From Candidatus Micrarchaeota archaeon (lineage in GTDB: Archaea > Micrarchaeota > Micrarchaeia > Anstonellales > Bilamarchaeaceae): 64,000 nt of DNA. Below, in pieces: positions 23,366-41,132 of the stretch. The stretch covers positions 36,318-100,317 of the forward strand of contig JBDRLQ010000016.1 in NCBI GenBank assembly GCA_043812915.1, given 5' to 3'. The notes under the pieces are model-generated. The model ran no database searches. It was not told the DNA's origin and saw only the letters and a program-made list of their open reading frames with translations. Position 1 is the first letter of the stretch. Each line of letters starts with the position of its first letter. The translations under genes were made by a program, and so were the position numbers.

Positions 23366-23447
23366 CATGGGCTCTCCTCAAGGGAGGCAAGAAAAAATAG
23401 ATTTTTTTACTTTCCTTTTTTTCAATTTAGCGTCGAATTTTGCATAC

Positions 23448-23477
23448 ATCTTGCCAAAACATTTATAAATCTTGCCA
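23448..23477 (+). promoter_or_regulatory. promoter of the beta-helix surface protein gene: TATA-like TTTATAAA (23462-23469) flanked by 9-bp direct repeats ATCTTGCCA (23448-23456, 23469-23477)
   Basis: Read directly from the sequence. The TATA box is 24 nt upstream of the ATG at 23493. Confidence 0.45.
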
Positions 23478-23492
23478 CAGATTCCTCCCCCT

Positions 23493-26400
23493 ATGCGAGC
23501 CAACGTTGTAATGATTCTGACCATGGTTTTAGTGTTTTCCTCCCTGGGATTCGCCCAGTTCACATTCGGCCCGGGAGACCCGGCAAACGATTGCAGCAAC
23601 CCTGCATTCGGGACTATGACCTTTGCTGCCTCAGGCACATATACCTGGGTGGGCGGCCCTAGTATGTTATATGACAACACTACAGGCTCTGGCCCTAACG
23701 GGTTCAATTGCATAGATGTGGTGGCTTCCGATGTGGTCATAGACTGCATGAACAATGTTATTGATGGCAGCGCAGGTAATGGTGACATCGGCATATATAT
23801 CGCATTGGGAGTTGACAACGTCACAATCAGGAACTGTGTCATACAGGAATTCGGATGGGGGTCCGCTGGCGGGGCAGGGCACAGGCTAGCTGTCGGCAAC
23901 ATATTCGTTGATGGTGCGACAGATGTCGTGCTGGACAGTTCAAACCTCACATTCATCTTCTCTTCGCCCGGCTTGGGGGACCATATCGCCTACAATGCCC
24001 TAATATCTACGTCAGGGCTCACGCTGAACAATTCGCATCTTCTGACGTTCATGCCCCCTGTCCCTGGATCCAATGCGGCAGGCATAGCAGGCAGGCTTGC
24101 CGATGGCTCGCAAATATCGGCGCCTGTTGATGATGTCACAATTGAGGCCTCAAGCATCGAGCAACAGCCGACACACGGCGCTTGGATAGATGGCGACAAC
24201 GTGCAGGTTTATGGCGGGAGCATATTCGAATGGAATACTCTTAATGGCCTTTACATTAACGGTGCGAATGATTACATCGAGGGCAACACTTTTAATAACA
24301 ATATGGGGACCGGGCTTGTGATGTCCAATGCTTATAATTCGCAGGTTCTCTCCAATGACATGATTGGGAACGGCAATTACGGTGCTGCCTTCGTCCTTGC
24401 GGAGGATGTTTATTTCTTTGACAACAACGCCTCGAACAATGGGGGCGGAGGCCTTATCATCGAGGAATCGGAAAATATCACCGCAGAGGAAAATGAGATG
24501 AGCGGAAACACGGATGAAGGAATCTGGGTGGAATCCTCCGGAGTTGCGAATACGGACATCCATATCCTCTCCAATATTATATACGATAATGACTATGGAA
24601 TTGTGATGGAGAATTCCGTTGATTCTGAAATCGACGGAAATGAAATCTGGGACATCAACAATGCGGGAATCCACCTTGAGGGCGTCGACCCGACAACCGT
24701 AAGCGACAATGACGTGGCATTGTGCGACCAGGGCATCTACGCATGCGACGTGCAGTACGTCACTTTCGAATGGAATGAGATTCATGACAACTCAAATGAG
24801 GGTTTCTATCTTGAAGTTGGATGCGACCCGGGAGCGGTGAATGAGTACATCACCTTCGACAACAACGAAATATACAGCAACGGTGATGACGGAATCTACG
24901 CGGCATACACAGACTACATAACGATGACTGACAACCAGGTATATGGCCACGGCTCAAGCGATGGTGCGGAGCTTTACTGGTGCTATGCGCCCGAGATATA
25001 TAGTGACAATAACTTCTCGCTGAACAGCGACAACGGCCTTTACCTCAACACATGGTGCGATGATGCGGTCGTCTACGACAACACGTTCTCAGACAATGAT
25101 TTCGGCTTCAGGATGTACGACGGGTTCAACCTGTATCTCTATGACAACCGGTTCTGGGACAATGACGGCTCAGCAGGTGCATACATAGTCGATTCCGACA
25201 CCATCAATATTTACGACAACGAATTCCTTGGGAACAGTTATGGTGTCTATGCGGACCCGACCACCAGCATAAACATCACAGGAAATACGATAAACGACAG
25301 CACGAATTCAGGAATATACTACGACACCATTATGACGAGCTATATCTACAACAACTATGTAGGGTACAGTGGGGATGATGGAATTGAAATAACAGCTTCC
25401 GACTCTGTAGACATTATAGACAATGTTGTGGAGGAAACCAGCTCTGGGGACTGTGTTTACATAGTTAATAGCCCCCTTTCCAATATCAATGGCAACACGC
25501 TCAGGTACTGCGACAGCGACGGAATCGAGCTTGATAATGCGGAGTTTACGACCATCGACCCCAATTATATACATGACTGCGGGGATAATGGTATCTACGT
25601 GGCGGGCGGTTCTGATTCTGTGACGATAGACGGCAACTTCATATATGACAACCAGATTGGTCTCTACATGGAGGACGGCCTTGCAACCGTCACCAACAAT
25701 GAGGTATATGACAATGACGAGCAGGGCATATACCTGGATGGAGCATACGATGGCGTCTTTGAGGACAACATTGTCTACGACAACGGCTATTCTGGCTATT
25801 ACTTGGACATCAACGCTAACGGTAACACGTTCACCGATGATGTCCTTTATGGAAACGGCTATGACTGTGTTTTTGACTGGGATCCAGAATGCTATGGATT
25901 CTATATAGCCAACAGCGATGATCCTGAGCTGATTAATGTTGTTTCGCGCGACTCCTGGGCAGGGGTGTGGTTCTCGACAGTGAACAGCCCAATTCTGACT
26001 GATGTACGGGTTTACGGGAACACTGAGGATTCTCTGTATATGGAAGGGGCCACAAATATAGATTTCACTAGGGTCGAGCTCTACAACAACGGCGGATACG
26101 GTTTCTACTTCGATTCTGCCAGCACTGGAACAATGACTGACTGTACAGTCCACGACAACGGGCCAGCAGTGTATGGTATTGAGCTGTATGGCGCCAGTGA
26201 CATCACTGCGGACAACCTGCAGATATACAACCATGTGGATGCATGGCTGTATGTCGAGTCCGGTTCCACGCTTGACACAACTGACCTGACAATCGGCTAC
26301 AATACTTTATATGGCGCCGACTGGCCCCCAACCACAATCTTTGACGGGGCTCAGAACACTGACATCTATGACACCAACTTCCTTATCGGGCCTGACTTCG

Positions 26401-27602
26401 TCTCAATGGACAGCACCGACCCGGATACGGATGAGATGAATGTCGCAGGTGTCACTTTGAGGACCCAGGTCGGAGGATGCACTGGCATCACTTATTATCA
26501 TGCGGCAGGTTTCCCTGCAGATGCGGATGAGGTGATTGCAACCGGGGCGCCATTCACTCCAGGCACCAAAGGGTGCGTCGGTTCTGTTGCGACCTATGAG
26601 GCTTCACTGAACTTCTCAGGATACACCGCAGGGGGGACTCTCTCATCCAGCGGTGGAAGCTCTGCAGAGACCAAGAGAATGACGGTCGAGTCAGAGATTC
26701 TCTGCCCGGGCGATGAGGTGGAACTCACAGTCACACACAGCGGTTCGCCAGTTGTTGGAGTGAATGTTGAGCTCACCCAGTACAACCCGTATATGGGGGT
26801 TGTCGCAAGCGGCACCACCGACAGCAATGGGAAGGTGACCCTTGACCTGCCTGCTAGCGGTGTCTACAGGGCTCATCTGAGCAAATCAGGCTATACTTAC
26901 CTCAATCCGTATGTCTTTGAGCACTCCTTGTGCTCAGGGATGGCGCCTGGCGCCTGCAGGACGGATTCCGGATGCGCCCCTGCCGAAGCCTGCGTGGCTG
27001 GCAGCTGTGTCGCCCTTACAGGCGACTGCGGCTATGCCTCGGGGCATGTCTGGATTGACTATGGGTGCTGCTCCAATGCGGACTGCGCGGCCGGAACAAG
27101 CTGCGTGGGCCACGTTTGCATGAGTCCTGAGGAGGAAGTTCATGAAGGCGCTCCAGGGGAAGGCACAACGCCTCCGGGAGAGGTAATCGCGGAAGAGGAT
27201 GCAGATGCTGCTGCAGCGGCCCTGACAGCGCTTGATGAAGCCACCGGAGCAATCTGGGAGGCTGACCAGGCCGGGAAGGACACAACTGCCGCCAAAGCGA
27301 AGTTCATGGAGGCCCAGAATGCCTACAACTCAGGCGACTATGCCAAAGCCAAGGAACTTGCCGAGGAAGCCAAGAGATTAGCTAATGAAGCCGCGGCGCC
27401 TGCGGAGGGTGCAATTCCTGAAGCGGGCGTTGAAGGGCAGCCTACGGCTGGACAGCCGCCAGCAGCGTCTTCAGGCGGACCTGGCATGCTTCTCATAATA
27501 GTGGGCGTGGTAATCCTTATCGCTCTTGGGGCCGGTGCATACTGGCTCCTTGGCCAGGGCAAGCCAAAGGGCGGCTACAAGCCAAAAGGCGGCAGCCAGT
27601 AA
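23493..27602 (+). CDS. giant (about 1370 aa) cell-surface protein: signal peptide, long right-handed parallel beta-helix (PbH1/NosD-like) repeat region, Cys-rich module, CarboxypepD_reg-like domain, Ala/Glu-rich linker, C-terminal TM anchor
   Basis: Dozens of short Asn/Gly/Ile-rich pseudo-repeats (NxGxGI/YxDNxxY style) typical of beta-helices. GVNVELTQ...GKVTLDL...GVYRAHLSKSGY resembles a transthyretin/CarbopepD_reg fold. C-terminal hydrophobic helix plus KPKGG tail. Confidence 0.7.
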   Translation: MRANVVMILTMVLVFSSLGFAQFTFGPGDPANDCSNPAFGTMTFAASGTYTWVGGPSMLYDNTTGSGPNGFNCIDVVASDVVIDCMNNVIDGSAGNGDIGIYIALGVDNVTIRNCVIQEFGWGSAGGAGHRLAVGNIFVDGATDVVLDSSNLTFIFSSPGLGDHIAYNALISTSGLTLNNSHLLTFMPPVPGSNAAGIAGRLADGSQISAPVDDVTIEASSIEQQPTHGAWIDGDNVQVYGGSIFEWNTLNGLYINGANDYIEGNTFNNNMGTGLVMSNAYNSQVLSNDMIGNGNYGAAFVLAEDVYFFDNNASNNGGGGLIIEESENITAEENEMSGNTDEGIWVESSGVANTDIHILSNIIYDNDYGIVMENSVDSEIDGNEIWDINNAGIHLEGVDPTTVSDNDVALCDQGIYACDVQYVTFEWNEIHDNSNEGFYLEVGCDPGAVNEYITFDNNEIYSNGDDGIYAAYTDYITMTDNQVYGHGSSDGAELYWCYAPEIYSDNNFSLNSDNGLYLNTWCDDAVVYDNTFSDNDFGFRMYDGFNLYLYDNRFWDNDGSAGAYIVDSDTINIYDNEFLGNSYGVYADPTTSINITGNTINDSTNSGIYYDTIMTSYIYNNYVGYSGDDGIEITASDSVDIIDNVVEETSSGDCVYIVNSPLSNINGNTLRYCDSDGIELDNAEFTTIDPNYIHDCGDNGIYVAGGSDSVTIDGNFIYDNQIGLYMEDGLATVTNNEVYDNDEQGIYLDGAYDGVFEDNIVYDNGYSGYYLDINANGNTFTDDVLYGNGYDCVFDWDPECYGFYIANSDDPELINVVSRDSWAGVWFSTVNSPILTDVRVYGNTEDSLYMEGATNIDFTRVELYNNGGYGFYFDSASTGTMTDCTVHDNGPAVYGIELYGASDITADNLQIYNHVDAWLYVESGSTLDTTDLTIGYNTLYGADWPPTTIFDGAQNTDIYDTNFLIGPDFVSMDSTDPDTDEMNVAGVTLRTQVGGCTGITYYHAAGFPADADEVIATGAPFTPGTKGCVGSVATYEASLNFSGYTAGGTLSSSGGSSAETKRMTVESEILCPGDEVELTVTHSGSPVVGVNVELTQYNPYMGVVASGTTDSNGKVTLDLPASGVYRAHLSKSGYTYLNPYVFEHSLCSGMAPGACRTDSGCAPAEACVAGSCVALTGDCGYASGHVWIDYGCCSNADCAAGTSCVGHVCMSPEEEVHEGAPGEGTTPPGEVIAEEDADAAAAALTALDEATGAIWEADQAGKDTTAAKAKFMEAQNAYNSGDYAKAKELAEEAKRLANEAAAPAEGAIPEAGVEGQPTAGQPPAASSGGPGMLLIIVGVVILIALGAGAYWLLGQGKPKGGYKPKGGSQ

Positions 27603-27618
27603 GAAACAGGTGACTGAT

Positions 27619-28083
27619 ATGAAAAAAATATTGGCAATTTTCGGATTTCTTCTCCTTTCAGGAGTGGGCTTCGCGGCAATCGGCCCGATAATAGTAAGGC
27701 CCCCGGTTCCAACCGACCCTTTCCTGCAGGCCAGGTTCAATAATGCGGATTGTTGGGCTGGCTATGGAATGGACATAATCAGCGATGCGCAGGGCTATTA
27801 TCCAGACCCGCCCCCGGCGCCCGCGTACTTGCAGACGATTAGTGATGAGATATTCGCCCAGAGGGACATCTTGGCCGGTTATCTCGTCGACGAAAATGTC
27901 GTCGCCTTCAATGCGCAGTACCTGGTCGTAATGAGCTATGTGCAGCAGGCCAAGGCGGCTTACAGGACCGAGGCAAGATATGCCATAGGGCAGGGCTGGG
28001 AAGCCCGCGGGGACATAATAACTGATTTTAATGGCCAGAGGAGCAACCTCATCAGCTGCCTTGCTATGCCGGTTCCAGGATAA
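27619..28083 (+). CDS. small secreted hypothetical protein (signal peptide MKKILAIFGFLLLSGVGFA)
   Basis: Clear Sec signal peptide. Immediately downstream of the giant surface-protein gene. Confidence 0.55.
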   Translation: MKKILAIFGFLLLSGVGFAAIGPIIVRPPVPTDPFLQARFNNADCWAGYGMDIISDAQGYYPDPPPAPAYLQTISDEIFAQRDILAGYLVDENVVAFNAQYLVVMSYVQQAKAAYRTEARYAIGQGWEARGDIITDFNGQRSNLISCLAMPVPG

Positions 28084-28099
28084 TTTTTTTCCTTTTTTT

Positions 28100-29381
28100 G
28101 GCTCTTCTCCCAAGTTAGGATAAAATGTATGGTGTATTTCATGAAGTTTGGAGACAAACATGAAACACAACCATACGTCTGTAATCAGGAACTTATATGC
28201 TTTTAAGGGCTTCCGAATTTCCCAGGTTTTTCTCACTGAAAAAGAGCTCAGGATTTTCCTGGAAAAAACAGTGAAAACTGGCATCTGTCCGGCTTGTGGA
28301 AAAAGATGCAGGAAGATTGAAGACATGTATGAACGCACGGCCAGAGATCTTGACTGTGTCGGCAGGATTGCTTTCATCACTTTCAAACAATACAAGATCA
28401 GGTGTGGCTGTGGCTACAGAGGAATAGAAGAATTGGGTTTCCTCGATAAATACAGCTTCTGCACGAAAAGACTTGAGGAATATGTCTTTCTCCTCTGCCA
28501 GAAGATGAGCATCAAGGATGCTGCCCAGCTATGCAAGCTGAATTGGAAGACTGTGAAGAACATCGACAAGAAGTATCTACGGCAGCTTGTTACTCCCCTG
28601 TCAGAACTCAGCCCCAAGAGGATTGGTGTTGATGAGATTTCCCATGAGAAAAGACACAAGTACCTGACTGTTGTGAGGGATCTTGATCTGAAGAGAGTAA
28701 TCTGGGTTGGCAAGGGCAGAAGAAAAGAAACCCTGGATGAATTCTTCTCAGAGCTTGGAGAAAAGAAGGCCAGGCGTATTAGGGTAGCTGTGATGGACAT
28801 GCATGATCCCTATATCGCCTCTGTGAGTGAGAACTGTCCTGATGCAGACATTATCTTCGATAAATTCCATATCAGCAAGAAGGTGAACGAAGCCCTGGAC
28901 TCTGTGAGGAAAAAGGAGTTTGGCAGGGCAGATGCCCAAGAGAGGAAAAACATGAAGAGGAAGCGTTTCCTCATCCTGAGCAGGAAGAAACGCCTGGATG
29001 ATGAGCAAAAAGAAACAGTTGAGGACCTCAAGAGGATAAATGCCCGTCTTTATGAGGCATATCTGCTGAAGGAGCAGGTCCTGGACATCTTTGATGAAAA
29101 AAGAAATCATGACTGCATTATCCAGATTTATCAGGTGGTCCACCAACGTAGAAAAATCAGGTTTTGTTGTTTTTCAGAAAGTTGTGAAAACACTCAAGAA
29201 TTATTTTTATGGGATAATGAACTACTTTTACTACAGAATAACCAATGCTGCATCTGAAGGATTCAACAACAAGATAAATGTCATCAAGAGAAGGGCGTAT
29301 GGCTTCAGGGATTTGGAGTACTTCATGCTGAAAATCCTGCAAAGTTGTGGCTTGAGGTCATCCTAAAGTCGGAGAAGAGCC
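28100..29381 (+). mobile_element. ISL3-family insertion sequence with imperfect terminal inverted repeats of about 21 bp
   Basis: IRL GGCTCTTCTCCCAAGTTAGGA (28100-28120). IRR reverse-complement GGCTCTTCTCCGACTTTAGGA (29361-29381), 17/21 identical. They bracket a transposase with ISL3 signatures. The element is lower in GC than its flanks. Confidence 0.75.
28148..29366 (+). pseudogene. ISL3 family transposase interrupted by a +1 frameshift in an A6 run (about 29096-29103)
   Basis: N-terminal zinc-finger (CPACGKRC), VDEISHEKRHKYLTVV, and C-terminal RITNAASEGFNNKINVIKRRAYGFRD are hallmark ISL3 motifs. The reading frame switches between ORFs 28148..29257 and 29091..29366. Confidence 0.75.
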
Positions 29382-29420
29382 TTTATATTTTTTTGTATCC
29401 AACCCTATTGCTGTGATAAT

Positions 29421-30305
29421 ATGGCAGGCGTAAGTAGGGCAATTCGGCCAATTGATTCTGATTTACAACAGATGCAGCAGTCATTCAACCAGCTCTTTAG
29501 GGCCTTTCATATCCCTCCTGCTGACCGTGCAATTGTTCAGCTTAGGGTAAATCGGTACATCGATGATCTTATTTTCAATGTCGGTTTTGATGGCCGCCTT
29601 GCCCACTTTGATTCTATCCTTCCTTCTGAATTGCAATCATCTTCAGACGGTTTTGCAGATAGGAGGGCTGCACTCTCTTCAGTAGAAATAACTTCTACAA
29701 TTGTCAGTTCTATCGCCCGGGCACATCGGGAAAATCCAGGAGGACGTGACTTCTATTTTGTCTCGGCTCCAACAAGGGATGGCGATGTGACACGTGTTAT
29801 GGATGAATTCGCGGTTCCTGCAAGTGAAAGGGATTCAACACATGTTCTTTTGGAAGAGCTGGAAATCCCAGGCCGCTTTAGGGCTGATATTCTTGCCTGT
29901 GCCTTGATTATTGAGCGGGGGCATTATCCAAGCCCAAGAAATTTCATGGGCAACTTCCCCTCAACATTCCCTGAATCCCGAGACTGGAGCATCAGGGCGG
30001 CTTGGACATATTTTACCCGTCTTGTTAATAGTGCCGAAATAAGTAATGAAAGAATCCCGATACTTGGCGGAGCCACCCTTCGTGATAGGCTGATGCCATC
30101 TTTTAGGGAGGTGTTCAATATCCTTGATTCTCTGGCACAAGGAAACGTATCAAGAGAAGAAGCATATTCTGGGGCTATCGAGGCTCTTCGCAGGTATAAT
30201 AATTATTCAGTATTTCCTGGATTTTTAGGGCATTTCCCCCCGGTGCTTTTAGAAATAGGGACTTCGATTGTCAGGGATTCTGTGCCACGAAGAGTGAATC
30301 CATAA
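29421..30305 (+). CDS. hypothetical protein (294 aa), lower GC than the host average
   Basis: ORF with no recognisable family. Immediately outside the IS right end. Confidence 0.45.
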   Translation: MAGVSRAIRPIDSDLQQMQQSFNQLFRAFHIPPADRAIVQLRVNRYIDDLIFNVGFDGRLAHFDSILPSELQSSSDGFADRRAALSSVEITSTIVSSIARAHRENPGGRDFYFVSAPTRDGDVTRVMDEFAVPASERDSTHVLLEELEIPGRFRADILACALIIERGHYPSPRNFMGNFPSTFPESRDWSIRAAWTYFTRLVNSAEISNERIPILGGATLRDRLMPSFREVFNILDSLAQGNVSREEAYSGAIEALRRYNNYSVFPGFLGHFPPVLLEIGTSIVRDSVPRRVNP

Positions 30306-30331
30306 ATCTAAGAAAAAAGATTTTGAACAGA

Positions 30332-30600
30332 CTATTCTCCGTCAGTCCCCTCATCAACTATGGTCCCTTCCGGAGCTTCAGGTGCATTTCCGGGAGGACA
30401 CAGATATGCATTTCCGCATTCAGGGGCATCGAATTCTCCTGCCTCCTGCAGTCTCCTCCAGGAAGGGCATGCGGCGTTCTCGCATCCGGTAATCCCACCC
30501 ATGCCCATTAAGCCCATGTAGACGCCTATCTGGTTCCATCCAGGGTCATTCTAGTCCTCAAAACTGAGTTTGAAGCGGTCTACATAGTCTAATTATTAAT
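30332..30600 (-). pseudogene. orphan 3' fragment of a paralog of the adjacent 943-aa secreted protein gene (in-frame stop; 5' part missing)
   Basis: Minus-strand translation FKLSFED*NDPGWNQIGVYMGLMGMGGITGCENAACPSWRRLQEAGEFDAPE aligns with the C-terminus of the 30729..33443 product (CKLNYYDKTDSGYNKLAVYMSLMGY...GCENVACPSWRRLQEGGDFDVPE). Homology stops abruptly at about 30600. Confidence 0.7.
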
Positions 30601-30728
30601 TTCTTCTTATTTTCCTTTTTTGCACGCCGCAAGTGTCTTAGTCGAGCCAGATCAATAAAATGAACAGGCTCATCCATATTCATTTAGATTGGGAATTAAG
30701 AGCCAATGATCAGCTGAATGGCTTACAC

Positions 30729-33443
30729 TCATTCCCCTTCTTCTTCCTCATCATCAAAATCAGGCACAGAGCCCGGTGGCTCGCTCTCGTAGTGGGCGTA
30801 TGGGCTTTCCTCAGGCACATCGAAGTCGCCACCTTCCTGGAGCCTCCTCCAGCTCGGGCACGCGACATTCTCGCAGCCTCCGGCTCCAAGCTCACCCTCG
30901 CTGTTGTATCCCATCAGGCTCATGTATACCGCAAGCTTGTTGTAGCCAGAGTCCGTCTTGTCATAATAGTTGAGCTTGCAGCTGTACACGTAATCTATGA
31001 AGTCCTGGATTCCCCAGCAGTATGGTTGTTCGTCCTTCATGTCGCCCTCAGCGTGGCATGCCGCCAGGTATAACGGGCTGACGCAGTCCGCGTTTGTCCA
31101 GTCCTTCCTCTCCTCGAATTCGGTTATCCAGACCGCTCCCTGGTCGTTCCCCCAGGTTCCGAAATAAATGTGCCCTGCGATGTAGTACTCAAGCACCCTC
31201 TCCTTGTCAGGATTGTCCCTGATTCCGAAGAGGTCTCCATCATCCCCCCGGGTTCTGTACTTGTCAACTACCTGGCCCGCCATTTCCACAGCTCGCGCAA
31301 TGTCATAAGTCCCCATGCAGGCTGAGTCCGCGGGGTCGAAGGGGTTGAAATCATAGCCGCACTGGGTGATTGCCCGATCAGGGTTGTCGGCAGTCCTTCT
31401 GTTCTGGCCAGTTCCGCCATCCCTGGTCTGCACCGCGTCGATGAACTGGTCCTCATACACCCCGCAATCGGATGGCGAGTCCTCGTAGATGCAGAACTCC
31501 TCCCTCGGCCAGAATGTGTAGGGGCTGGTCATGGTCTGCATAAGCCCTGTCGCCATCCATCTCCAAGATGGGGTTTCCCCTGCCGCATCCGGATCGGGCT
31601 GGGGCTCAAGATTGTAATTGCATTCTCCGCTTGGGTCTTCCATGAAATTGTATCCAGCGCTGTATTTTCCGGGAATGCACCTGCTCGGGCAGTCTGTCCC
31701 GCTCCTGCATGAGCAGGCGGCGGCGCACATGTCCATTCCGCCCTCTGCAATCGCGACAGCGCGCGCATATAGCGGATCGATGTTATGCGTGCTTGCCCAG
31801 CTATCTATCATCGGATAGGCCGTGCAGGCAATCTCCATGTCTGTAAGCCCTGGGAAGCGCTCACGCGTTTCGGCAGACACGCTGACTCCCCTTGGCTCTA
31901 TTATCCCTGCATAGGGGAACTCAAGCTGTTCGTTCATGCACGCGTCGCAGCGCACATAGGGCTCCATGGGTTCGAAAAGGTCAGGGGTCATGGGAGAGCC
32001 GAAATCCCGCAGCCCTCCGGCGCCATATTGCATGTGCAGCAGGCTGTCCCACTGCTCGTTGAAGTTGCATCTGCCACCTGTCTGGTTAGGGAAAACAATG
32101 GGTATCCCGGGGGTTGGCGAGAATTCCCCTGCGCAGCAGTCCTGCTCAGGATTGGCCGCGCAGTCGGCGCAGCTTGTCTCCACCCTCATTATGCCTGTGA
32201 ATCCCTGGCACCCTCCGAACCAGCTCTGCATCCGATCGATGTTCTTTCCGATTGAGCAGTCCTCGCAGCTCATCGGATTCCCGCGCATGCCTCCAAGCGT
32301 TGAATTGAAATCATATGGTGAGGCGCCTATTACCCCGGTCTCAAGGAAAGCTGGCAGGTTGGGGAAGAAAGCGTTATAGCCCCGAATCATCTCTGCCTCT
32401 GTCCATTCGCACTCGACTGAGCCATCCTCATTGAGCACCTCTCCGCCCGAGTCGAAGAGCATGTATGGCATTACCGTCGGCTTCTTGAACGTCTGCCAGA
32501 CGAAGGAAGAGAAGTTGTAGGCATCAAGGTACAAGTCGTTGTAATCGCAGGAGTGCGCCCTGTGGCTGTTCATCCCGAAGGCCACAAGGTCGAAGTTCTC
32601 GGACCGCGGATCCTCAAGAGTGGCCTGCACTCCGGTAATATCATCCATCCTGGCTCCGAGGGCCACCATGCAGTACACCTCGCCGTCCCTTCCATTGGGG
32701 CACTGGTCCTTCATGGCCACGGCCTGCTCAAGAACGAGCTCCCTGGTGGCATCGTCCGATAAATCTGCGTCCATCTCTGTTGTGATTATGATTGGCCCGA
32801 CAGGCCCCCAGAGCTGCCCGTGGGTCACCGATGAGCCCCCGTGATACAAGGTATCCGCTATCGCTCCTGCCCTCGTGACATTAGGCGCCCCGCCGCTATA
32901 TAGCACATAGACCGGCATGACCTCCTTGTCAAGAAGGCAGATTGCCCTTGAGGGGTCAACGTCGCTGTACTGGGCGGTCTCCACATCGCCAATCAGCCAC
33001 TGCACGGCCATCTTCAGCTGGTTGTTGCACCAGCGGTTGGCCTCGCCGAAATCAGCGAAGGTGGGCCCGGCGCCAACCATGAAGTGGCGTATCCCCATGT
33101 CGCTGATGCTGCCGTTGGTAAGGTAATTATACCTCTCCTGGCTCGCCTCATACCTCTCAGCAGGATCATCAATATGCGTGGTGCCGGCAAGGTTCTCGAA
33201 CCTGCAGTCGGCGCCGACAAAAGAAGTGAAAACCCCCCAGATGTTGCTGGAGTTCGTGCATACCATCGCCCAGCACTCTACATCGCCGCATATGTCCACC
33301 TCTGCAGGGTCATATAACGGCACTCTCCCATGCTCGGCGAGCCTGTCCGCCCAGTTTTCGCTGTAGTCATTGCCGCCGCTTATCCGGTCGACACAGCCGG
33401 CAGCCAGCAGTATCAGCAGTATTGGCAATATCACTCTTCTCAT
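30729..33443 (-). CDS. large (about 905 aa) Cys-rich secreted/lipoprotein-like protein of unknown function with an acidic C-terminal tail
   Basis: Start taken at MRRVILPILLILLAAGC (signal peptide plus lipobox-like AGC). About 45 Cys. Conserved C-terminal GCENVACPSWRRLQE motif followed by an acidic tail (DFDDEEEEGE). Confidence 0.65.
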   Translation of the reverse strand: MRRVILPILLILLAAGCVDRISGGNDYSENWADRLAEHGRVPLYDPAEVDICGDVECWAMVCTNSSNIWGVFTSFVGADCRFENLAGTTHIDDPAERYEASQERYNYLTNGSISDMGIRHFMVGAGPTFADFGEANRWCNNQLKMAVQWLIGDVETAQYSDVDPSRAICLLDKEVMPVYVLYSGGAPNVTRAGAIADTLYHGGSSVTHGQLWGPVGPIIITTEMDADLSDDATRELVLEQAVAMKDQCPNGRDGEVYCMVALGARMDDITGVQATLEDPRSENFDLVAFGMNSHRAHSCDYNDLYLDAYNFSSFVWQTFKKPTVMPYMLFDSGGEVLNEDGSVECEWTEAEMIRGYNAFFPNLPAFLETGVIGASPYDFNSTLGGMRGNPMSCEDCSIGKNIDRMQSWFGGCQGFTGIMRVETSCADCAANPEQDCCAGEFSPTPGIPIVFPNQTGGRCNFNEQWDSLLHMQYGAGGLRDFGSPMTPDLFEPMEPYVRCDACMNEQLEFPYAGIIEPRGVSVSAETRERFPGLTDMEIACTAYPMIDSWASTHNIDPLYARAVAIAEGGMDMCAAACSCRSGTDCPSRCIPGKYSAGYNFMEDPSGECNYNLEPQPDPDAAGETPSWRWMATGLMQTMTSPYTFWPREEFCIYEDSPSDCGVYEDQFIDAVQTRDGGTGQNRRTADNPDRAITQCGYDFNPFDPADSACMGTYDIARAVEMAGQVVDKYRTRGDDGDLFGIRDNPDKERVLEYYIAGHIYFGTWGNDQGAVWITEFEERKDWTNADCVSPLYLAACHAEGDMKDEQPYCWGIQDFIDYVYSCKLNYYDKTDSGYNKLAVYMSLMGYNSEGELGAGGCENVACPSWRRLQEGGDFDVPEESPYAHYESEPPGSVPDFDDEEEEGE

Positions 33444-33495
33444 GAGAGAAACCTCTAATAGATAAGAAAAAGGAACAAAAAAGAATAAAAAGAAG

Positions 33496-36400
33496 CTAGT
33501 AGAGCCTGGACCTGCAGCTCGCGTTCGAACAGGTGGCTCCGCGATAGCCCGCGCGGCCACAGTTGGCGCAGTAGCAGACGCTGGACATTCTCCAGGGCCT
33601 CATCGCACGCCCTAGGGCGGCGCCTGTCCTGTCCGCAGTGTCTGCGAGCCTGTTCATATAGCCTCCGCCCCTGTGCCCGTTCTTCACGAAGTCCACAAGG
33701 CTGGTGGTTATATTCCTGAGGCCGAACGATCCGGTTCCGGGCGCTGGCATGTGCCACATGAAGAGCAGCGGGTTGGCCCATCCGAACATCGAGTTCTGGG
33801 ATACGCCGAACCCTCTCATCTCCTGCCCTCTCCTTATCTGGAGGGCTTCTGCGGATATGGTCCTCCTGTGGTGCGTGTCAAGCGCGGAATCGTGTATCTC
33901 CTTTTCGAAGAGTACGGACGCATCACCGCTCCTGAGCATGTTCGCCGCCATGGTCGGGTCCAGCCTCAGGTTCGCCCTGTAGCTGTATGCGCTCAGCCCC
34001 GGGTTGGCAGCTCCTATTCTGACGTCGGAGTACACACCCTCGTTCTGCAGCCACATGTCCTGCGCCGCTGCCCCAAGGCCTCCCCTGAAGTCGTTGCCCG
34101 CAAGCTGCCTCGCTTCAAGGCTGCTCTGGAACACGTTGGACTTGTTGAGCGCCTGGGCAAGCCTGCCCCTGCCTATGCTCGCGCTGAACGGGTTCAGCGA
34201 CTGCAGCGCTTCCAGCACCCTCGGCTGGGTGAAGTTGTACTGCCTGAGCGGGTCGTTCACAGAGTCGAACTTGGAAGCGTATCCCTGCATGGACATCTGC
34301 ATTCCTCTGAACATGTTCGTGTAGGGCGCCATCATCCTCCTCGCGACCGATATCACGGCACCTGAGTGGGCCATGAAGTTCATATATTCGCTCTTGGTCA
34401 TGTACGACTGCAGGTTGTTCGAAAGCGAGTAGGTGTCCTGAGGCCCGAAGTGGAACTTGGCTGCCCATGCCTGGTGGGTTCCGAATGAACTGGAAGCCAG
34501 CCACGGGTTCCTGTCTATCGCGAATGCCCACACCTGGTCGAACCTGCCCTGGTCTATTGCCAGCCTGCGGTATGCCTTCTGCTCCTGGGCGCTGAGCCCG
34601 AGCTGGTTAAGGTCTGCTGACATTATCCTCTGGGCGTTCCTCCATGATGCCTGCCTGTAGAACTCCGAGTAAGGAGTTATCTCCCAGGAAGCCTTGTGGA
34701 GCTCACCACCAGCGGAAAGTGCGACACGCGACACATAGTCCCCGACATGGAGTGCCATGTCCCTGAACGGCTTTATCGCCTTCATCAGGCCTGGAGCCTC
34801 CCAGTTGAACATGCGGAATATGCTCGGGGCAAGGGGCATAACCTCCCTCTTGGCCATCACCTTCACGTCGCTATTGTTCCAGAACTTTCCGTAGTCATAG
34901 GTCTGGTTGCCGTACCTCCATGTGACAGCTCCCAATATCTTCTGCTTCTCATAGCTGTATCCGCCGTCCTTGGCCCATGCGGTGACCTCGTTCATGAATG
35001 CGTTCCATTCATGTGTGGTCCTCTTGCTCTGGAGGTCCTGCCACCTTCTCTCAAGGTCGCTCCTTCCGCCGAAGTGTATGTTTACATCATCCGGATTGAA
35101 GAGCATGTGGGACTTCGTCTCCCTGTTGTAGAGCGACACTTCTCCTGCGAGCATCCTGTCCTTGTCACCTACTGGCATGGCATGCCTGTAGGGGCAGTAT
35201 CCTCCGTCAGACATAAGCACCCACGGCTGCTTGAATCCAGCCAGGTCGTCATATGTTATCTTGCTGCCGAGCACCTTCTTCAAGTCATCCTGGTGCTCCA
35301 TCGCAAGGGTCCTGAACTTCTTTAAGTCCTCTGGATTCTGCATCTTCATGGTCTCAAGGAACCTGAGGTCAGCGTGGTTGCCCGGCATGCCCTTGTTCTC
35401 CTTCAGGGCCTTTTCCATGAACGCTGCGAGCACGTTGTTGTAGAAGCCCGTAGTCTCATGCATCTGTCCCCCATAGGCGTGGTTGCAGAATGTGGAGTTC
35501 GCCCTGTTCCGCATATCCTTCTCTATGTAATCTGACACCCACATCTGCTGGGCCTTGGTCCTCCTCTGGTCGACAGACCAGCTTGTGGAGCCGACTGCCC
35601 GGTCAAGCCTTGCTTCAACAGACGGATCGAGCGCTGTCACGTATCCACCGCCGAACCTGCGGTTTATCCACGGCGCCATTGCTATATTCTCTGAAGTGTC
35701 TATGTGCGAGAGCCAGTGCGTCTTCATGTCTGTCTTGAACGCCCCTGTCGGAGGCGCTAGCTCGAAGGCTCCCTGGTGCCACACCCTCCTTCCATCAGGG
35801 GTCATTCCGCTCTTGGGTATTGCCCCGCCGAACGTGAAGTCCACCATCTCGGCTATCGCGGCTTGGCTGACACTCTTGCCCTTCACCTTCTGGAACATCT
35901 CCCTGCCCTCGGCGGTGAACATATCGGCGAAGTAGCCTCTGGCCCTGTCTCGTATCTTGCCAAGCTGGACCTCGTTCCTCATGTATTCCGGAAGCTCATG
36001 CATGTTGCTTGCCGGATTGAGGGTAACCATCCTGTTGACGGCCTTTAGCCACTCGGACTGGAGCGCTTCCTTTATGCCCGCGCCGTATACGTGGCCTTCC
36101 TCATTCGCATATACCATTGAGCGGAACACCGACATGTTCCATATCTCCTGGGCGGTCATGTGCTCCCTGCCCACGAATGAATGGAACGCGTTGGGGCTGC
36201 TCGCGCTTCCCGGCGGGAAGTCGTTGTGGTGCTGCTCTATCACCTGCTGGAGAGCGAGCATCTTGGCGAATTCAGGCATCTTGGACGCTTCCACAGCTTC
36301 AACACTGCGCTGGAACTGCAGCATGCCCGAGAACTCGCTCCTGGCTATGCCCTGCCTCTCGGCAAGATTCAAGAGCTGGCCGAGCTTCTGCTCCCCGCTG

Positions 36401-38292
36401 GCCTTGGTGTTTCCGAGTATATGCCTTATCTCTTCTTCCATTGCTGCGAATGCGGCTGATGACCTCACGCCCGACATCTTGACCACGTCGAGGTCGCGGC
36501 ATCCTATGTTGGCCAGTTCCTCCTGGGTCATGTGGACATTGACGCCTGCCTTTCCATATATGCGGGATACTACGTGCCGCATTTCATCGCGGGTAAGCTC
36601 ATGCCTGAGCTTGCCATAGAAGAAACCCATGTTCTGGTCCACGCGGTACATGCCCCCCACCACCATCTCGTGGGGTGGGGTGGTGACCTGCTTGTAGAAC
36701 GCTCCTGCCGCCCCGCCCCTCCTCTGGGCTGCTGCGGCCCTGGCTTCGAAGGCGGGCTTTCCGCCTACTACTGCCGTGGTGCCTGTCTTGGCCATTTCCC
36801 TGGCGAATGCTATTCCGTGTGTTCCGGCGGCCCTGGTTCCCCTGGCAACCACCTGCGTGGTTCTTGACATGGAATCCACAGTGCCTGCGACTATGGGGCC
36901 GAGTATGGCGTACCTTCCGAATGCCTTTCCAAGCGCGCTCTGCACCCTCTGGTGCGCCGCGCTGCGCACTCCGAGCTCCGGGTGCGCTGTTAGCACTTCG
37001 AGCCTCTTCCATGTGCTAAGGCCGCTTATATACTGCCTAATTGAGCCTCCCAATACGGCGTCCTGCCCTCCCCTGCCTTCAAGCGTTGACATAAGCTGGG
37101 ATACTACCCTGTGCTCCTCCTCTCCATAGTGGTATGGGAGCCTGCGCGCAAGGCTTCTTGCCTCCTCAGCCGACATGCCTGCCCTGCGGGCTGCGACCGC
37201 CATGCTCTCGGACATCTGCCTCAGCTGCCCGACATCGCCTGCGGCCCTGTCCCCTGCGGTTGCGGGCGCTGCCTGCGCCAGCCTGCGTATCTCACTTACT
37301 TCTGAAGGCGTTACTCCCGCGCCTCTGGTGGCGAGCCTCTCTGAAGTAAGGGCTGTCGCTCCTGCCGCAAGGCCCATGTTGCTCTTTAGCGTCCTCTTCA
37401 TTTCCGTGTAACCGAAAGGGGCGAGTATCTGCCCACTGGCCGAGACTCCCTTTGGAGCCGGAAGCCTTGGCGTGGTTATGTCTAGCAATGATATGGGCGA
37501 TTTGCCCGAAAAGTACATCGATGCCAGAAGAAGGCCGAGTATCATGAATATCCCCAGGCACGGAAGCGTTCCTCCTATTCCGCTTGGCCCTGCAACCAGG
37601 GAAGTTATCATGTCCGTAAGCTCCGGGAGTATTCCCGGGCTTGTGTCTTCGGTTGTGAGCGTGGTGGTGTACGGAGTAGTCGTTATCCCTCCATTGAGCT
37701 GCGCCGGGGCCACTACCTTCACGTTTATCCTTCCTGTTCCTCCGAGCTCCCCTCCTGTTGAATACAAGCTTGTGGGCACTTCGCAGGATACATAGTAATA
37801 TGGTATGGCGTCCGCGCCTTCACCCACGGTCCTGTAGTCCTCCGCGGTGAGTACTGGGCTGCAGTCAGGTATTCCCACCCAGTCCCTCGCGTTGGGGCTC
37901 CAGTAAAGGAATGTGAAATTAGCATTGGGCACTGTCATGTATGTTACGTCCTGTTCAGTGCTGCCGAGCCTTTCAGCGCTCGCACTGTGAATGCAGCTCT
38001 GCCAGTCGTATCCTCCGTCTTCCCTGATGAATTCGGCGGCGTCGCAGTACTCATGGTAGCCTTCTCCCCTGCAACACTCTGCTATGCGCTGCGTTTCCGA
38101 AAAATCCACTGCGGACGCTTCGGTACGGAAAAGAAGCAGGCTCGCCTCAAGGACATTGGAGCCCTCTCCGGTCGGCATTACCACCAACTGTCCCTCGAAG
38201 AAATCAGAGCCTCCGAAAAGGTCGGCACTGACTGTGGGGACCAGCATCAGCAAAACAAACATCCCAACGAACAAATTTCTTATTGCGGACAT
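33496..38292 (-). CDS. giant (about 1598 aa) membrane protein of unknown function: signal peptide, extracytoplasmic N-domain of about 230 aa, single TM helix, very large Q/N/M/W/R-rich domain, C-terminal Cys4 zinc-ribbon-like tail
   Basis: ATG at 38292 gives MSAIRNLFVGMFVLLMLVPTVSA. The ORF track uses an in-frame GTG at 38301. Hydrophobic segment GTLPCLGIFMILGLLLASMYF at about aa 240-262. C-terminal CYCANCGRAGYRGATCSNASC. No recognisable catalytic motif. Confidence 0.65.
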   Translation of the reverse strand: MSAIRNLFVGMFVLLMLVPTVSADLFGGSDFFEGQLVVMPTGEGSNVLEASLLLFRTEASAVDFSETQRIAECCRGEGYHEYCDAAEFIREDGGYDWQSCIHSASAERLGSTEQDVTYMTVPNANFTFLYWSPNARDWVGIPDCSPVLTAEDYRTVGEGADAIPYYYVSCEVPTSLYSTGGELGGTGRINVKVVAPAQLNGGITTTPYTTTLTTEDTSPGILPELTDMITSLVAGPSGIGGTLPCLGIFMILGLLLASMYFSGKSPISLLDITTPRLPAPKGVSASGQILAPFGYTEMKRTLKSNMGLAAGATALTSERLATRGAGVTPSEVSEIRRLAQAAPATAGDRAAGDVGQLRQMSESMAVAARRAGMSAEEARSLARRLPYHYGEEEHRVVSQLMSTLEGRGGQDAVLGGSIRQYISGLSTWKRLEVLTAHPELGVRSAAHQRVQSALGKAFGRYAILGPIVAGTVDSMSRTTQVVARGTRAAGTHGIAFAREMAKTGTTAVVGGKPAFEARAAAAQRRGGAAGAFYKQVTTPPHEMVVGGMYRVDQNMGFFYGKLRHELTRDEMRHVVSRIYGKAGVNVHMTQEELANIGCRDLDVVKMSGVRSSAAFAAMEEEIRHILGNTKASGEQKLGQLLNLAERQGIARSEFSGMLQFQRSVEAVEASKMPEFAKMLALQQVIEQHHNDFPPGSASSPNAFHSFVGREHMTAQEIWNMSVFRSMVYANEEGHVYGAGIKEALQSEWLKAVNRMVTLNPASNMHELPEYMRNEVQLGKIRDRARGYFADMFTAEGREMFQKVKGKSVSQAAIAEMVDFTFGGAIPKSGMTPDGRRVWHQGAFELAPPTGAFKTDMKTHWLSHIDTSENIAMAPWINRRFGGGYVTALDPSVEARLDRAVGSTSWSVDQRRTKAQQMWVSDYIEKDMRNRANSTFCNHAYGGQMHETTGFYNNVLAAFMEKALKENKGMPGNHADLRFLETMKMQNPEDLKKFRTLAMEHQDDLKKVLGSKITYDDLAGFKQPWVLMSDGGYCPYRHAMPVGDKDRMLAGEVSLYNRETKSHMLFNPDDVNIHFGGRSDLERRWQDLQSKRTTHEWNAFMNEVTAWAKDGGYSYEKQKILGAVTWRYGNQTYDYGKFWNNSDVKVMAKREVMPLAPSIFRMFNWEAPGLMKAIKPFRDMALHVGDYVSRVALSAGGELHKASWEITPYSEFYRQASWRNAQRIMSADLNQLGLSAQEQKAYRRLAIDQGRFDQVWAFAIDRNPWLASSSFGTHQAWAAKFHFGPQDTYSLSNNLQSYMTKSEYMNFMAHSGAVISVARRMMAPYTNMFRGMQMSMQGYASKFDSVNDPLRQYNFTQPRVLEALQSLNPFSASIGRGRLAQALNKSNVFQSSLEARQLAGNDFRGGLGAAAQDMWLQNEGVYSDVRIGAANPGLSAYSYRANLRLDPTMAANMLRSGDASVLFEKEIHDSALDTHHRRTISAEALQIRRGQEMRGFGVSQNSMFGWANPLLFMWHMPAPGTGSFGLRNITTSLVDFVKNGHRGGGYMNRLADTADRTGAALGRAMRPWRMSSVCYCANCGRAGYRGATCSNASCRSRLY

Positions 38293-38330
38293 CTTAATCA
38301 CACTTCTAAGTAAATCGGGTCGACGCCGCT

Positions 38331-39553: not shown

Positions 39554-41128
39554 GTGAATACTGTGGACGACAAACAATCTTCTTCGAATCTTAGGGTAAT
39601 TAGTGTTTTCGTTCTTGTCATGATAAACGTGGCCGCGATTGCTTCGCTCCGTGGCCTTCCTGCAATGGCCGAACTCGGTCTCTCATCTGTCTTCTATTTC
39701 GTGGTGATAGCGCTCCTTTTCTTCATACCCACCGCCTTGGTTTCGGCAGAGCTGGCAACAGGCTGGCCGAAGAAAGGAGGGGTGTATGTATGGATAAAGG
39801 AAGCCTTCGGCCAGAGATGGGGATTCCTGGCAATCTGGCTCCAATGGATTCAGAATGTCATCTGGTATCCCACCGTCCTCTCATTCACCGCGGCCACCCT
39901 GGCATATGTCTTCAGCCCTGCCTTGGCATCTAACCCGTTGTATATGCTGGGGGTTATCCTTGCGGTGTACTGGGGAGCGACATTGGCAAACTTTCGCGGT
40001 ATGAAGACTTCCGGAACGATAACCACAATCGGAGCGGTCGGAGGGACAATCCTTCCAGCATTAATTATCATCATCCTCGCAGGAATATGGATATCTTCGG
40101 GCAACGCGCTCCAGATCGAATTCAATTTTCAGGACTTGGTTCCGGACCTTAGCAGCATAGGCACAATCGTCCTTGCCGCAAGCGTCCTCCTAGGTTTCTG
40201 CGGAATGGAGATGTCCGCCGTGCACGCCCAGGAAGTTAGAAATCCGCAGAATAATTTCCCCCGGGCGATACTTCTTTCGACGGCGCTCATCTTGGGGATA
40301 TTCATCCTCGGGACACTATCAATCGCGATAGTGGTCCCCACTGCGAAAATCAGCTTGGTTGCTGGAATCATGCAGGCCTTCACAAGCTTCTTTGATGCGT
40401 ACAATATCGGTTGGATGGTTCCAATCATCGCTCTTTTGATTGTCCTTGGGTCAATCGGCTCTGTGAGCACCTGGATTGTGGGCCCGAGCAAGGGATTGTT
40501 CGCGACAGCATCCGAAGGCTCTCTCCCGCCCTTCTTCCAGAAGGTGAACAAGAACGGGATGCCTGTCAACCTGATGCTGGTCCAGGCGGGGATAGTGACC
40601 CTGCTGGCGCTCATATTCCTTCTGATGCCTAATGTCAGCAGCTCATACTGGATTCTGACAGCGCTGACAGCGCAGCTTTATCTAATCATGTACGTGCTGC
40701 TCTTCCTTGCAGCACTCAAGCTGCGCTATTCCAGGCCGGAAGTTCCGCGCGCATACAGGATCCCATTCGGTAAACTCGGCATGTGGGTTGTCGCGGGAGT
40801 TGGAAGCCTGGCGGCCCTTTCAGGGATTTTCATCGGATTCTTCCCGCCATCCCAGCTCCAGACCGGGAACATAATATTCTACGAGTCATTCCTGGTTGTT
40901 GGCATACTGCTGGTTGTTTCCGCCCCCCTGGTGATACACCACTTCAGGAAGCCGGAATGGGTTCCGAAAACAGCGAGGCAGGATATGACAATCAGCGCAG
41001 CTCCGGAAATACTTGCCAGGAAAATGGCAAAGGCTGACCGGATAGCCGGCTACACGAAAAAACCAGGGGCAAGGAACCCAAAAAAGAAGAGTATCAAATC
41101 CAGAAAGAAAACCAAGAGAAGGGGATGA
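39554..41128 (+). CDS. APC-superfamily amino acid permease, putative glutamate:GABA antiporter (GadC-like)
   Basis: 12-TM APC-like protein of about 520 aa with a basic C-terminal tail. The stop is 4 nt before the glutamate decarboxylase start. The start may be a GTG. Confidence 0.65.
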   Translation: MNTVDDKQSSSNLRVISVFVLVMINVAAIASLRGLPAMAELGLSSVFYFVVIALLFFIPTALVSAELATGWPKKGGVYVWIKEAFGQRWGFLAIWLQWIQNVIWYPTVLSFTAATLAYVFSPALASNPLYMLGVILAVYWGATLANFRGMKTSGTITTIGAVGGTILPALIIIILAGIWISSGNALQIEFNFQDLVPDLSSIGTIVLAASVLLGFCGMEMSAVHAQEVRNPQNNFPRAILLSTALILGIFILGTLSIAIVVPTAKISLVAGIMQAFTSFFDAYNIGWMVPIIALLIVLGSIGSVSTWIVGPSKGLFATASEGSLPPFFQKVNKNGMPVNLMLVQAGIVTLLALIFLLMPNVSSSYWILTALTAQLYLIMYVLLFLAALKLRYSRPEVPRAYRIPFGKLGMWVVAGVGSLAALSGIFIGFFPPSQLQTGNIIFYESFLVVGILLVVSAPLVIHHFRKPEWVPKTARQDMTISAAPEILARKMAKADRIAGYTKKPGARNPKKKSIKSRKKTKRRG

Positions 41129-41132
41129 AGAA

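Follow-up and report, generated by a model that had tools for sequence, protein, structure and literature searches.

How does a gene in an uncultivated archaeon come to be followed, on the same strand, by the 3' end of a second version of itself? This question is raised by 64,000 nucleotides (nt) of Candidatus Micrarchaeota DNA (contig JBDRLQ010000016.1, positions 36,318 to 100,317; 'the window', to whose coordinates positions refer unless a contig is named), in which an intact gene for a predicted secreted lipoprotein (ABIH29_04740; the resident gene) is trailed by an orphan fragment, the end of a homologous gene (Table 1). From sequence comparison, we give slightly better than even chances to the orphan being the non-functional relic of a foreign allele, derived from a lineage closer to that of P0029, a homologue from a sister species, and lying at the edge of a strain-variable, low-GC islet (28100-30728).

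The orphan fragment and its closest relative

An earlier note, made from the sequence alone, had described a full gene followed by a same-strand C-terminal fragment with an in-frame TAG, and open reading frames (ORFs) and translation confirmed this arrangement. A minus-strand ORF (30729..33560) has 943 amino acids (aa) counted from an upstream GTG, and NCBI starts the resident gene at the ATG at 33443, giving 904 aa (P0001/P0031; P0001, from metagenome-assembled genome (MAG) ABII71, is the near-identical counterpart of ABIH29_04740). The ATG start yields a lipobox-like LLAAGC whose G16 and C17 are invariant across the family. The resident protein ends in GGCENVACPSWRRLQEGGDFDVPE followed by an acidic tail; the orphan, read from 30592 to 30335, translates as LDYVDRFKLSFED and, beyond the in-frame TAG, NDPGWNQIGVYMGLMGMGGITGCENAACPSWRRLQEAGEFDAPECGNAYLCPPGNAPEAPEGTIVDEGTDGE, with its own stop codon at 30332-30334.

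Aligned as nucleotides, the two ends are similar over about 80 codons (blastn, 66% identity over 187 nt, E 1e-10), beyond the Cys motif and far above chance, which settles the earlier concern that the likeness might be compositional. The similarity was also recovered by tblastn (E 7e-24) and by a hidden Markov model of the family C-terminus (E 1.7e-10), and the orphan is homologous along its whole length to the structural C-terminus of the family. Homology had been said to stop abruptly at about 30600; the end is indeed sharp, but it falls at 30592, at the L/I codon of (L/I)DYVY, and two extra TAA codons (30593-30598) stand directly before it. The preceding 75 nt are 21-32% identical, as random sequences are. 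The longest exact match between the orphan and CT1, the C-terminal module of the resident protein, is 9 nt.

The search for further copies of the module found orphan-type ends in other assemblies and in P0029, but no second orphan in the 64-kb window. Nor did we find other relics of the resident gene in 23300-30728, or an orphan at any of the other family loci scanned (45 loci). A protein search with the fragment returned its own clusters only, Pfam, NCBIfam and PHROGs scans of the orphan were empty, and a degenerate DNA pattern for CEN[AV]ACPSWRRLQ[ED] run across JGI metagenome contigs matched the P0029 contig alone. Because L003, a contig from an independent NCBI MAG, and L049, a Logan contig, show the same layout, it is not an assembly artefact.

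P0029 is a full-length protein of 924 aa from a JGI/ENA metagenome contig, encoded in the same synteny by a single gene without an orphan. It is filed in a 90% protein cluster represented by a 97-aa fragment (the P0026 cluster), and was for this reason invisible to a full-length query. Its C-terminus is of the orphan type, including the tail ECGNAYLCPPG.APEAPEGTIVDE, and shares 84% of amino acids and 81% of nucleotides with the orphan. Over the same aligned columns, identity was 0.83 between the orphan and P0029, and 0.69 both between CT1 and P0029 and between the orphan and CT1, with 0.67 for the cores. The difference between C-terminal and core identity averaged -0.07 +/- 0.06 over 351 family pairs and never exceeded +0.12; for the orphan it is +0.16.

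Divergence between the window and the P0029 contig places CT1 with its surroundings and the orphan apart from them. Housekeeping neighbours share 77-79% of amino acids (non-synonymous divergence, pN, 0.13-0.15; synonymous divergence, pS, 0.71-0.76), the neighbouring 1601-aa protein 63% (pN 0.23, pS 0.66) and the core of the lipoprotein gene 62-67% (pN 0.13-0.32 by segment, pS saturated). CT1 against the P0029 C-terminus gave pN 0.25, in line with the adjacent resident segments (0.26-0.32), and pS 0.84; the orphan gave pN 0.10 and pS 0.53. Between the two contigs, the resident gene has diverged no further than the single-copy gene for the 1601-aa neighbour, which argues that the resident gene and P0029 are orthologues.

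Codon composition draws the same line. GC content at third codon positions (GC3) is about 0.71 in native genes, 0.62-0.80 in all 86-codon windows of the resident gene and 0.66 in CT1. In the orphan it is 0.51 (P = 1e-4 against the native 0.71), in a second orphan variant described below (v2) 0.49, in the P0029 C-terminus 0.40 and in the genes of the P0029 contig 0.45-0.53. The ratio of non-synonymous to synonymous substitution (dN/dS) between the orphan and the P0029 C-terminus is about 0.12, a low value from which it follows that the orphan diverged while coding; given the low non-synonymous divergence, neutral AT-drift of a dead native copy cannot explain the low GC3. CT1 looks like a vertically inherited, native part of the resident gene. 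The orphan is the odd one out, and these comparisons suggest that it was most likely a coding sequence in a lower-GC3 genome nearer that of P0029 before it arrived by recombination.

Strain haplotypes and a cluster of substitutions

Related assemblies showed that the region downstream of the orphan differs between strains. L003 (GCA_043826765.1) is 99.73% identical to the window over 13.2 kb with the same layout, and its orphan is an intact 97-aa ORF containing KKKLDYVYRCKLSYEDKNDPGWNKIG. A search with the fragment found two more sequences, L046 (a second contig of GCA_043826765.1) and L049. The latter runs contiguously from the resident gene (99.9% aa identity, with CT1) through the same spacer to an intact 96-aa orphan with a different tail (v2), then 204 nt and a 154-aa ORF. 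L046 runs on from v2 through the 154-aa ORF, a beta-helix gene and TopoVI, a stretch 99.89% identical to window positions 28097-18295. Haplotype A, that of the window, comprises tail v1, a 294-aa ORFan and an ISL3-family insertion sequence (IS); haplotype B comprises tail v2 and the 204 nt, without ISL3 and ORFan.

The two variants, each occurring as a single orphan per genome, are identical over the first 112 nt of L046 (which starts at window-equivalent 30585). In the 134 nt that remain before the stop, 26 positions differ, and past the stop the two cannot be aligned. The first four differences are synonymous and lie within CENAACPSWRRLQE, and dN/dS between v1 and v2 is about 0.19. Since the strains bearing v1 and v2 are otherwise 99.7-99.9% identical, this divergence points to a later recombination that used the orphan as homology. 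The truncation point and the spacer are the same in three assemblies, and because this includes the IS-free haplotype, we read them as the outcome of one old truncation event, independent of the IS. The suggestion that the ISL3 insertion was linked to the truncation does not hold: the IS lies 950 nt beyond the 3' end of the orphan, on the side opposite the truncated one, and the IS-free L046 and L049 share the truncation.

ISL3 is present in one copy in the window, its left inverted repeat (at 28100) is the exact junction between haplotypes A and B, and its right flank is unrelated to haplotype B. We found no clean (8-bp) target-site duplication at it. The element was probably involved in the rearrangement by which the 294-aa ORFan arrived. 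The split of its transposase is a frameshift or marks a pseudogene. Among 5.8 billion proteins, the sole match of the 294-aa ORF was itself, and Pfam, NCBIfam and PHROGs scans were empty for this ORF and for the 154/185-aa ORF. The whole 28100-30728 stretch is low in GC. A sister MAG contig ends within the 294-aa ORF, at position 30205.

The stop codons of the window orphan trace to eight substitutions relative to the intact 97-aa version, which set the window apart from three other assemblies. All eight are non-synonymous transversions; they create TAA, TAA and TAG, and one removes a family-invariant Cys. They are 8 of only 36 differences between the window and L003, the other 28 including 6 transversions (transition/transversion contrast, Fisher P = 1e-4; clustering, Poisson P = 3e-11). 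On the coding strand, seven of the eight are purine-to-pyrimidine changes and six are G>T or A>T. The cluster may record a single event of lesion bypass or error-prone repair, or else a fault in the assembly of the source MAG; bypass of abasic sites, to speculate, would give such a pattern.

Two other explanations of the cluster were rejected, as was read-through of the TAG. Hypermutation by a diversity-generating retroelement fits poorly: the 64-kb window holds no template repeat and only five of the eight changes are at A, with many A unchanged by eye (no search was aimed at a reverse transcriptase). A quasi-palindrome template fails too, as seven of the eight changes bring no improvement to a hairpin. 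Reading the TAG as pyrrolysine is contradicted by the AAG codon in other strains and by the two TAA codons just upstream.

Table 1. Features around the resident gene and the orphan, with positions in the 64,000-nt window
Feature	Position	Strand	Description
Right-handed beta-helix (NosD/PbH1) protein	23472-27602		1376 aa; between TopoVI-A and islet; CarboxypepD_reg-like domain
154-aa ORF	27619..28083	plus	Adjoins islet; 99.9% identical in haplotype B, there 204 nt from the orphan stop
ISL3-family IS	28100..29381	plus	Inverted repeats of 22 nt (28100-28121, 29360-29381); split transposase, with 369-aa and 91-aa ORFs that overlap
294-aa ORFan (ABIH29_04730)	29421..30305	plus	GC3 0.38; part of islet, missing from haplotype B
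Orphan 3' fragment	30332..30592	minus	Final 86 codons, with stop codon, of another allele resembling P0029; in-frame TAG at 30551-30553
Residual 61-aa ORF (ABIH29_04735, P0028)	30332..30517	minus	Part of orphan downstream of the stop codons
Substitution cluster	30532..30599	minus	8 substitutions in 68 nt, relative to the intact 97-aa version elsewhere
AT-rich spacer	30593..30728	minus	136 nt, GC 0.37; from resident stop to orphan; last six bases are two TAA codons (30593-30598)
CT1, resident C-terminal module	30732..30998	minus	Residues 816-904; two helices, Cys loop GCENVACPSW, short helix, acidic disordered tail
Intact resident gene (ABIH29_04740)	30729..33443	minus	904 aa, predicted secreted lipoprotein; TIM-barrel glycosidase-like N-terminal and SLT-like helical C-terminal domain
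~1600-aa (1601-aa) protein	33496-38301		Second member of conserved trio
AAA_16/ORC-like ATPase with winged helix-turn-helix	38424-39485	divergently transcribed	First member of conserved trio

Origin of the orphan and competing explanations

The homology with its sharp breakpoint, the haplotypes, the discordant similarity, the coding-type divergence, the composition and the stop codons are direct observations, from which we infer a direction of transfer and a mechanism of integration. DNA from a related Micrarchaeon, comprising the 3' end of the donor's own version of the gene and the sequence downstream, would have integrated just past the resident gene. Illegitimate joining of the left end in the spacer would have severed the incoming gene at its (L/I)DYVY codons; for the right end, an anchor by homology farther downstream is probable, as in homology-facilitated illegitimate recombination. 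This integration would predate the split of haplotypes A and B, because the junction is identical in all assemblies. A second exchange between strains, with the orphan serving as homology, would then have given rise to the two haplotypes, and in the window lineage one clustered mutation event would have broken the reading frame. The three stop codons in the window, the lack of a signal peptide in the intact 97-aa form, the start in mid-domain and the longest match to CT1 of 9 nt are signs that the piece is non-functional.

Several points weigh against a foreign relic. The module has only 86 codons, which puts wide errors on pS, GC3 and identity, and the orphan pS of 0.53 lies about 2.7 standard deviations below the genome-wide 0.71-0.80. 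Our searches found neither a donor more than 90% identical nor an orphan-free haplotype from before the integration, in which gene and spacer would lead straight to the next gene. The orphan, P0029, P0004 and P0005 have in common a Cys-flanked tail, CGNxYLCPP, that is absent from CT1, a pattern that could mean that CT1 is the newcomer and the orphan represents the ancestral C-terminus of the resident gene. The orphan ORF is intact in three of the four sequences, with synonymous-only differences across the motif, which leaves room for a maintained function.

The orphan might instead be the scar of a tandem paralog that arose in situ and later lost the 5' 90% of its second copy, leaving the 3' end. 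We consider this unlikely, though with a real chance of being right. A precedent stands at exactly the same position in MAG DeMMO3_13 (L025, 9980-15161), where two full-length tandem lipoprotein genes, 84% identical, are flanked by the 1600-aa gene and TopoVI-A. Among the sequences found before P0029, the orphan and CT1 also matched each other best, and the low dN/dS fits a copy that was full-length until recently. The orphan is, however, nearer to P0029 (0.83) than to CT1 (0.69), and a paralog would then need a duplication before the species split and opposite losses after it. Moreover, the divergence of the resident gene does not exceed that of its single-copy neighbour, an orphan GC3 of 0.51 is not host-like, and no spacer repeat follows the orphan. 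The deleted paralog that the earlier note offered as its alternative keeps some plausibility in view of the tandem copies of L025, but fits the divergence and codon composition less well than a foreign relic does.

A different history would make CT1 the newcomer: an incoming CT1, with its stop and spacer, would have recombined at the DFIDYVY-coding motif and pushed the original end downstream, where it might serve as a silent cassette. The layout, with a breakpoint exactly at a family-conserved motif, speaks for such a displacement, as does the placement of the CGNxYLCPP tail of the sister species and of P0004/P0005 on the orphan, not on CT1. The ORF is open in other strains with synonymous-only changes across the motif, and the histories of C-terminus and core are discordant. 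Yet it is CT1 that has host-like GC3 and a divergence continuous with the core, and the orphan that is the compositional outlier; homologous exchange would need more than 66% nucleotide identity and a longest exact match of 9 nt. The orphan stands alone, with no array around it, none occurs at the other loci among the 45, no fused core-orphan variant appeared among strain-level assemblies, and the window orphan holds three stop codons. We regard displacement as rather improbable.

Less probable still is that the orphan is a maintained silent cassette. Micrarchaeota populations would then exchange the C-terminal module of a conserved host-interaction glycosidase by recombination at DFIDYVY, and the orphan would hold an alternative end in store, which would explain its open frame and coding constraint in most strains. 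If true, no C-terminus-switching system of surface proteins would have been described in DPANN archaea before. Of the cassette layout that the earlier note had compared with C-terminus-swapping systems, part stands: the orphan is a true homologue with its own stop, it offers an alternative C-terminus whose history is discordant with the core, and its tail was exchanged between strains. What speaks against an active system is the one orphan, the 9-nt match, the absence of toxin or immunity content and the three stops.

We give very little credence to a stand-alone small gene of 96-97 aa for a Cys-motif peptide, of which the window would hold a knocked-out allele. NCBI and Logan gene callers annotate the intact ORF in three sequences, and the v1/v2 dN/dS of about 0.19 would suit such a gene. 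Against these, the 11 codons before the homology derive from the A-rich spacer (KRKIRRKKK), a disulfide-type extracellular module would lack its signal peptide, and the piece begins inside the helical domain. The start is GTG and no promoter evidence was found (the scan was for sigma-70 promoters and terminators and is uninformative for an archaeon), and the gene would have been destroyed in the window genome without visible compensation. A partial tandem duplication was rejected, as it predicts that the spacer recurs after the orphan and no similarity was found among the spacer, the flanks of haplotypes A and B and the P0029 flank, except a weak one between the spacer and the sequence past the P0029 stop (z 2.3).

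The resident protein, its locus and comparable systems

Pfam and NCBIfam scans of the resident protein gave no match. An AlphaFold model built on the family alignment (predicted local distance difference test (pLDDT) 76.7, predicted template modelling score (pTM) 0.78) has residues ~55-420 as a (beta/alpha)8 barrel, for which Foldseek returned glycosidases of glycoside hydrolase (GH) families GH2, GH53, GH113 and GH5 (probability 1.00, E 2.5e-5 to 1e-4, template modelling score (TM) up to 0.53, target-normalised). AxxE(S/G)G, GLMQ and YYxA motifs occur in the helical C-terminal half; E567 is invariant in the family, and the window protein reads EGG in place of ESG. Pfam SLT matched 12 of 24 members weakly (best E 3.4e-4, none over the Pfam threshold), and a PDB profile search found EtgA at the catalytic-Glu motif, also weakly (E 0.47). 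In a separate model of residues 505-904 (pLDDT 80.5), the most consistent Foldseek match was MltE, although non-significant (E ~2, TM ~0.5). The models suggest that the gene most likely encodes a secreted lipoprotein with two domains of glycan-cleaving type; for the C-terminal half, SLT is a suggestive assignment only.

At the C-terminus, helices were modelled at residues 815-827 and 832-844 (confidently) and at 865-871, and C822, Y840, C857, C862 and P863 are invariant across the family. The tail after the Cys module is disordered, variable and mostly acidic, with pLDDT below 50 from residue 883. The GC-x4-CPSW motif is the structural end of the family's last domain. The proposal that motif and tail form a sorting signal found no support: neither a hydrophobic helix nor a basic end follows the motif, the tail is variable, acidic and disordered, and there was no NCBIfam or Pfam CTERM match.

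A protein search yielded 24 homologues and a genome scan 40 loci, all from Micrarchaeota or related DPANN MAGs with one locus per genome. At nearly all loci the order is a divergent AAA_16/ORC-like ATPase, a ~1600-aa protein, the ~900-aa lipoprotein, convergent TopoVI-A/B and a KH protein. The window retains this ancestral order, but about 7.3 kb are inserted between the resident stop and TopoVI-A, containing the 1376-aa beta-helix protein, the 154/185-aa ORF, ISL3, the 294-aa ORFan and the orphan. The trio of ATPase, ~1600-aa protein and ~900-aa lipoprotein could form an apparatus for the cell surface or for host contact; the 1601-aa protein matched nothing in Pfam or NCBIfam.

Some loci depart from the common pattern. 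The two closest genus-level relatives (L001 and L002; P0002, P0003) have an inversion of the TopoVI-B/A and KH genes with respect to the trio, the window having the majority order. In a Bilamarchaeum MAG (L027, 8057-12607), the stop-free frame over the lipoprotein gene runs to 1517 codons, a length that could reflect either fusion to the 3' part of the 1600-aa gene upstream or a quirk of annotation or sequence. The 1376-aa protein has an apparent C-terminal transmembrane segment with KPKGG repeats, as judged by eye; a homologue lies on the P0029 contig (71% identity over the last 183 aa), and most other Micrarchaeota loci have none there. An amino-acid permease and a PLP (pyridoxal phosphate)-dependent decarboxylase adjoin the trio at 39554-42533 and also on the P0029 contig; the pair resembles decarboxylase/antiporter acid-resistance modules.

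In itself the orphan is nothing out of the ordinary, being a gene remnant that recombination left behind. As such it provides direct sequence evidence of DNA exchange between diverged, uncultivated Micrarchaeota lineages at a conserved surface-protein locus, and it marks the spot downstream of the resident gene as a strain-variable islet. It also calls for caution in annotation, the relic being listed by NCBI as a hypothetical protein of 61 or 97 aa, and clustering at 90% having hidden the full-length P0029. The uncharacterised, Micrarchaeota-wide lipoprotein and its partners in the trio, a 1600-aa membrane protein and an AAA ATPase, as a plausible surface or host-contact apparatus, are a better experimental target than the fragment.

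Truncated foreign gene ends produced by homology-facilitated illegitimate recombination or partial allelic replacement are known in naturally transformable bacteria. The orphan resembles such scars in being a truncated, apparently foreign end at a sharp non-homologous junction, with discordant composition and phylogeny, at the edge of a strain-variable islet. It differs in that the homologous anchor on the other side was not located here, that donor and recipient would carry the same syntenic gene, and that the host is a DPANN archaeon. The orphans of Rhs/CdiA polymorphic toxins are likewise same-strand, 5'-truncated alternative C-termini cut at a conserved motif, with discordant C-terminal and core histories. 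In contrast to those systems, there is no toxin domain, no orphan array and no high-identity stretch for exchange, and no immunity gene follows, the downstream sequence being an opposite-strand ORFan (haplotype A) or 204 nt of non-coding DNA (haplotype B); both ends are homologous variants of one structural module, and the orphan is decaying in the window.

With the PGF-CTERM/archaeosortase signals, the resident protein shares a short conserved motif near the C-terminus of a secreted protein; unlike theirs, this motif sits in a confidently folded helical module and no transmembrane helix or basic tail follows. The helical half can be compared with family 1 lytic transglycosylases (PF01464; Escherichia coli MltE, enteropathogenic E. 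coli (EPEC) EtgA) through catalytic-Glu AxxESG, GLMQ and YYxA-like motifs and a non-significant MltE fold match, and is set apart from them by large Cys-rich insertions and the fusion to a GH clan-A-like TIM barrel. Large murein-like lytic-transglycosylase proteins have been reported in Pacearchaeota and Woesearchaeota (PMC8204110), and the resident protein resembles these in being, by prediction, an extracellular protein of a DPANN symbiont. What distinguishes it from known lytic transglycosylases is that it belongs to a Micrarchaeota-specific family, in a fixed trio with the 1600-aa protein and the AAA ATPase.

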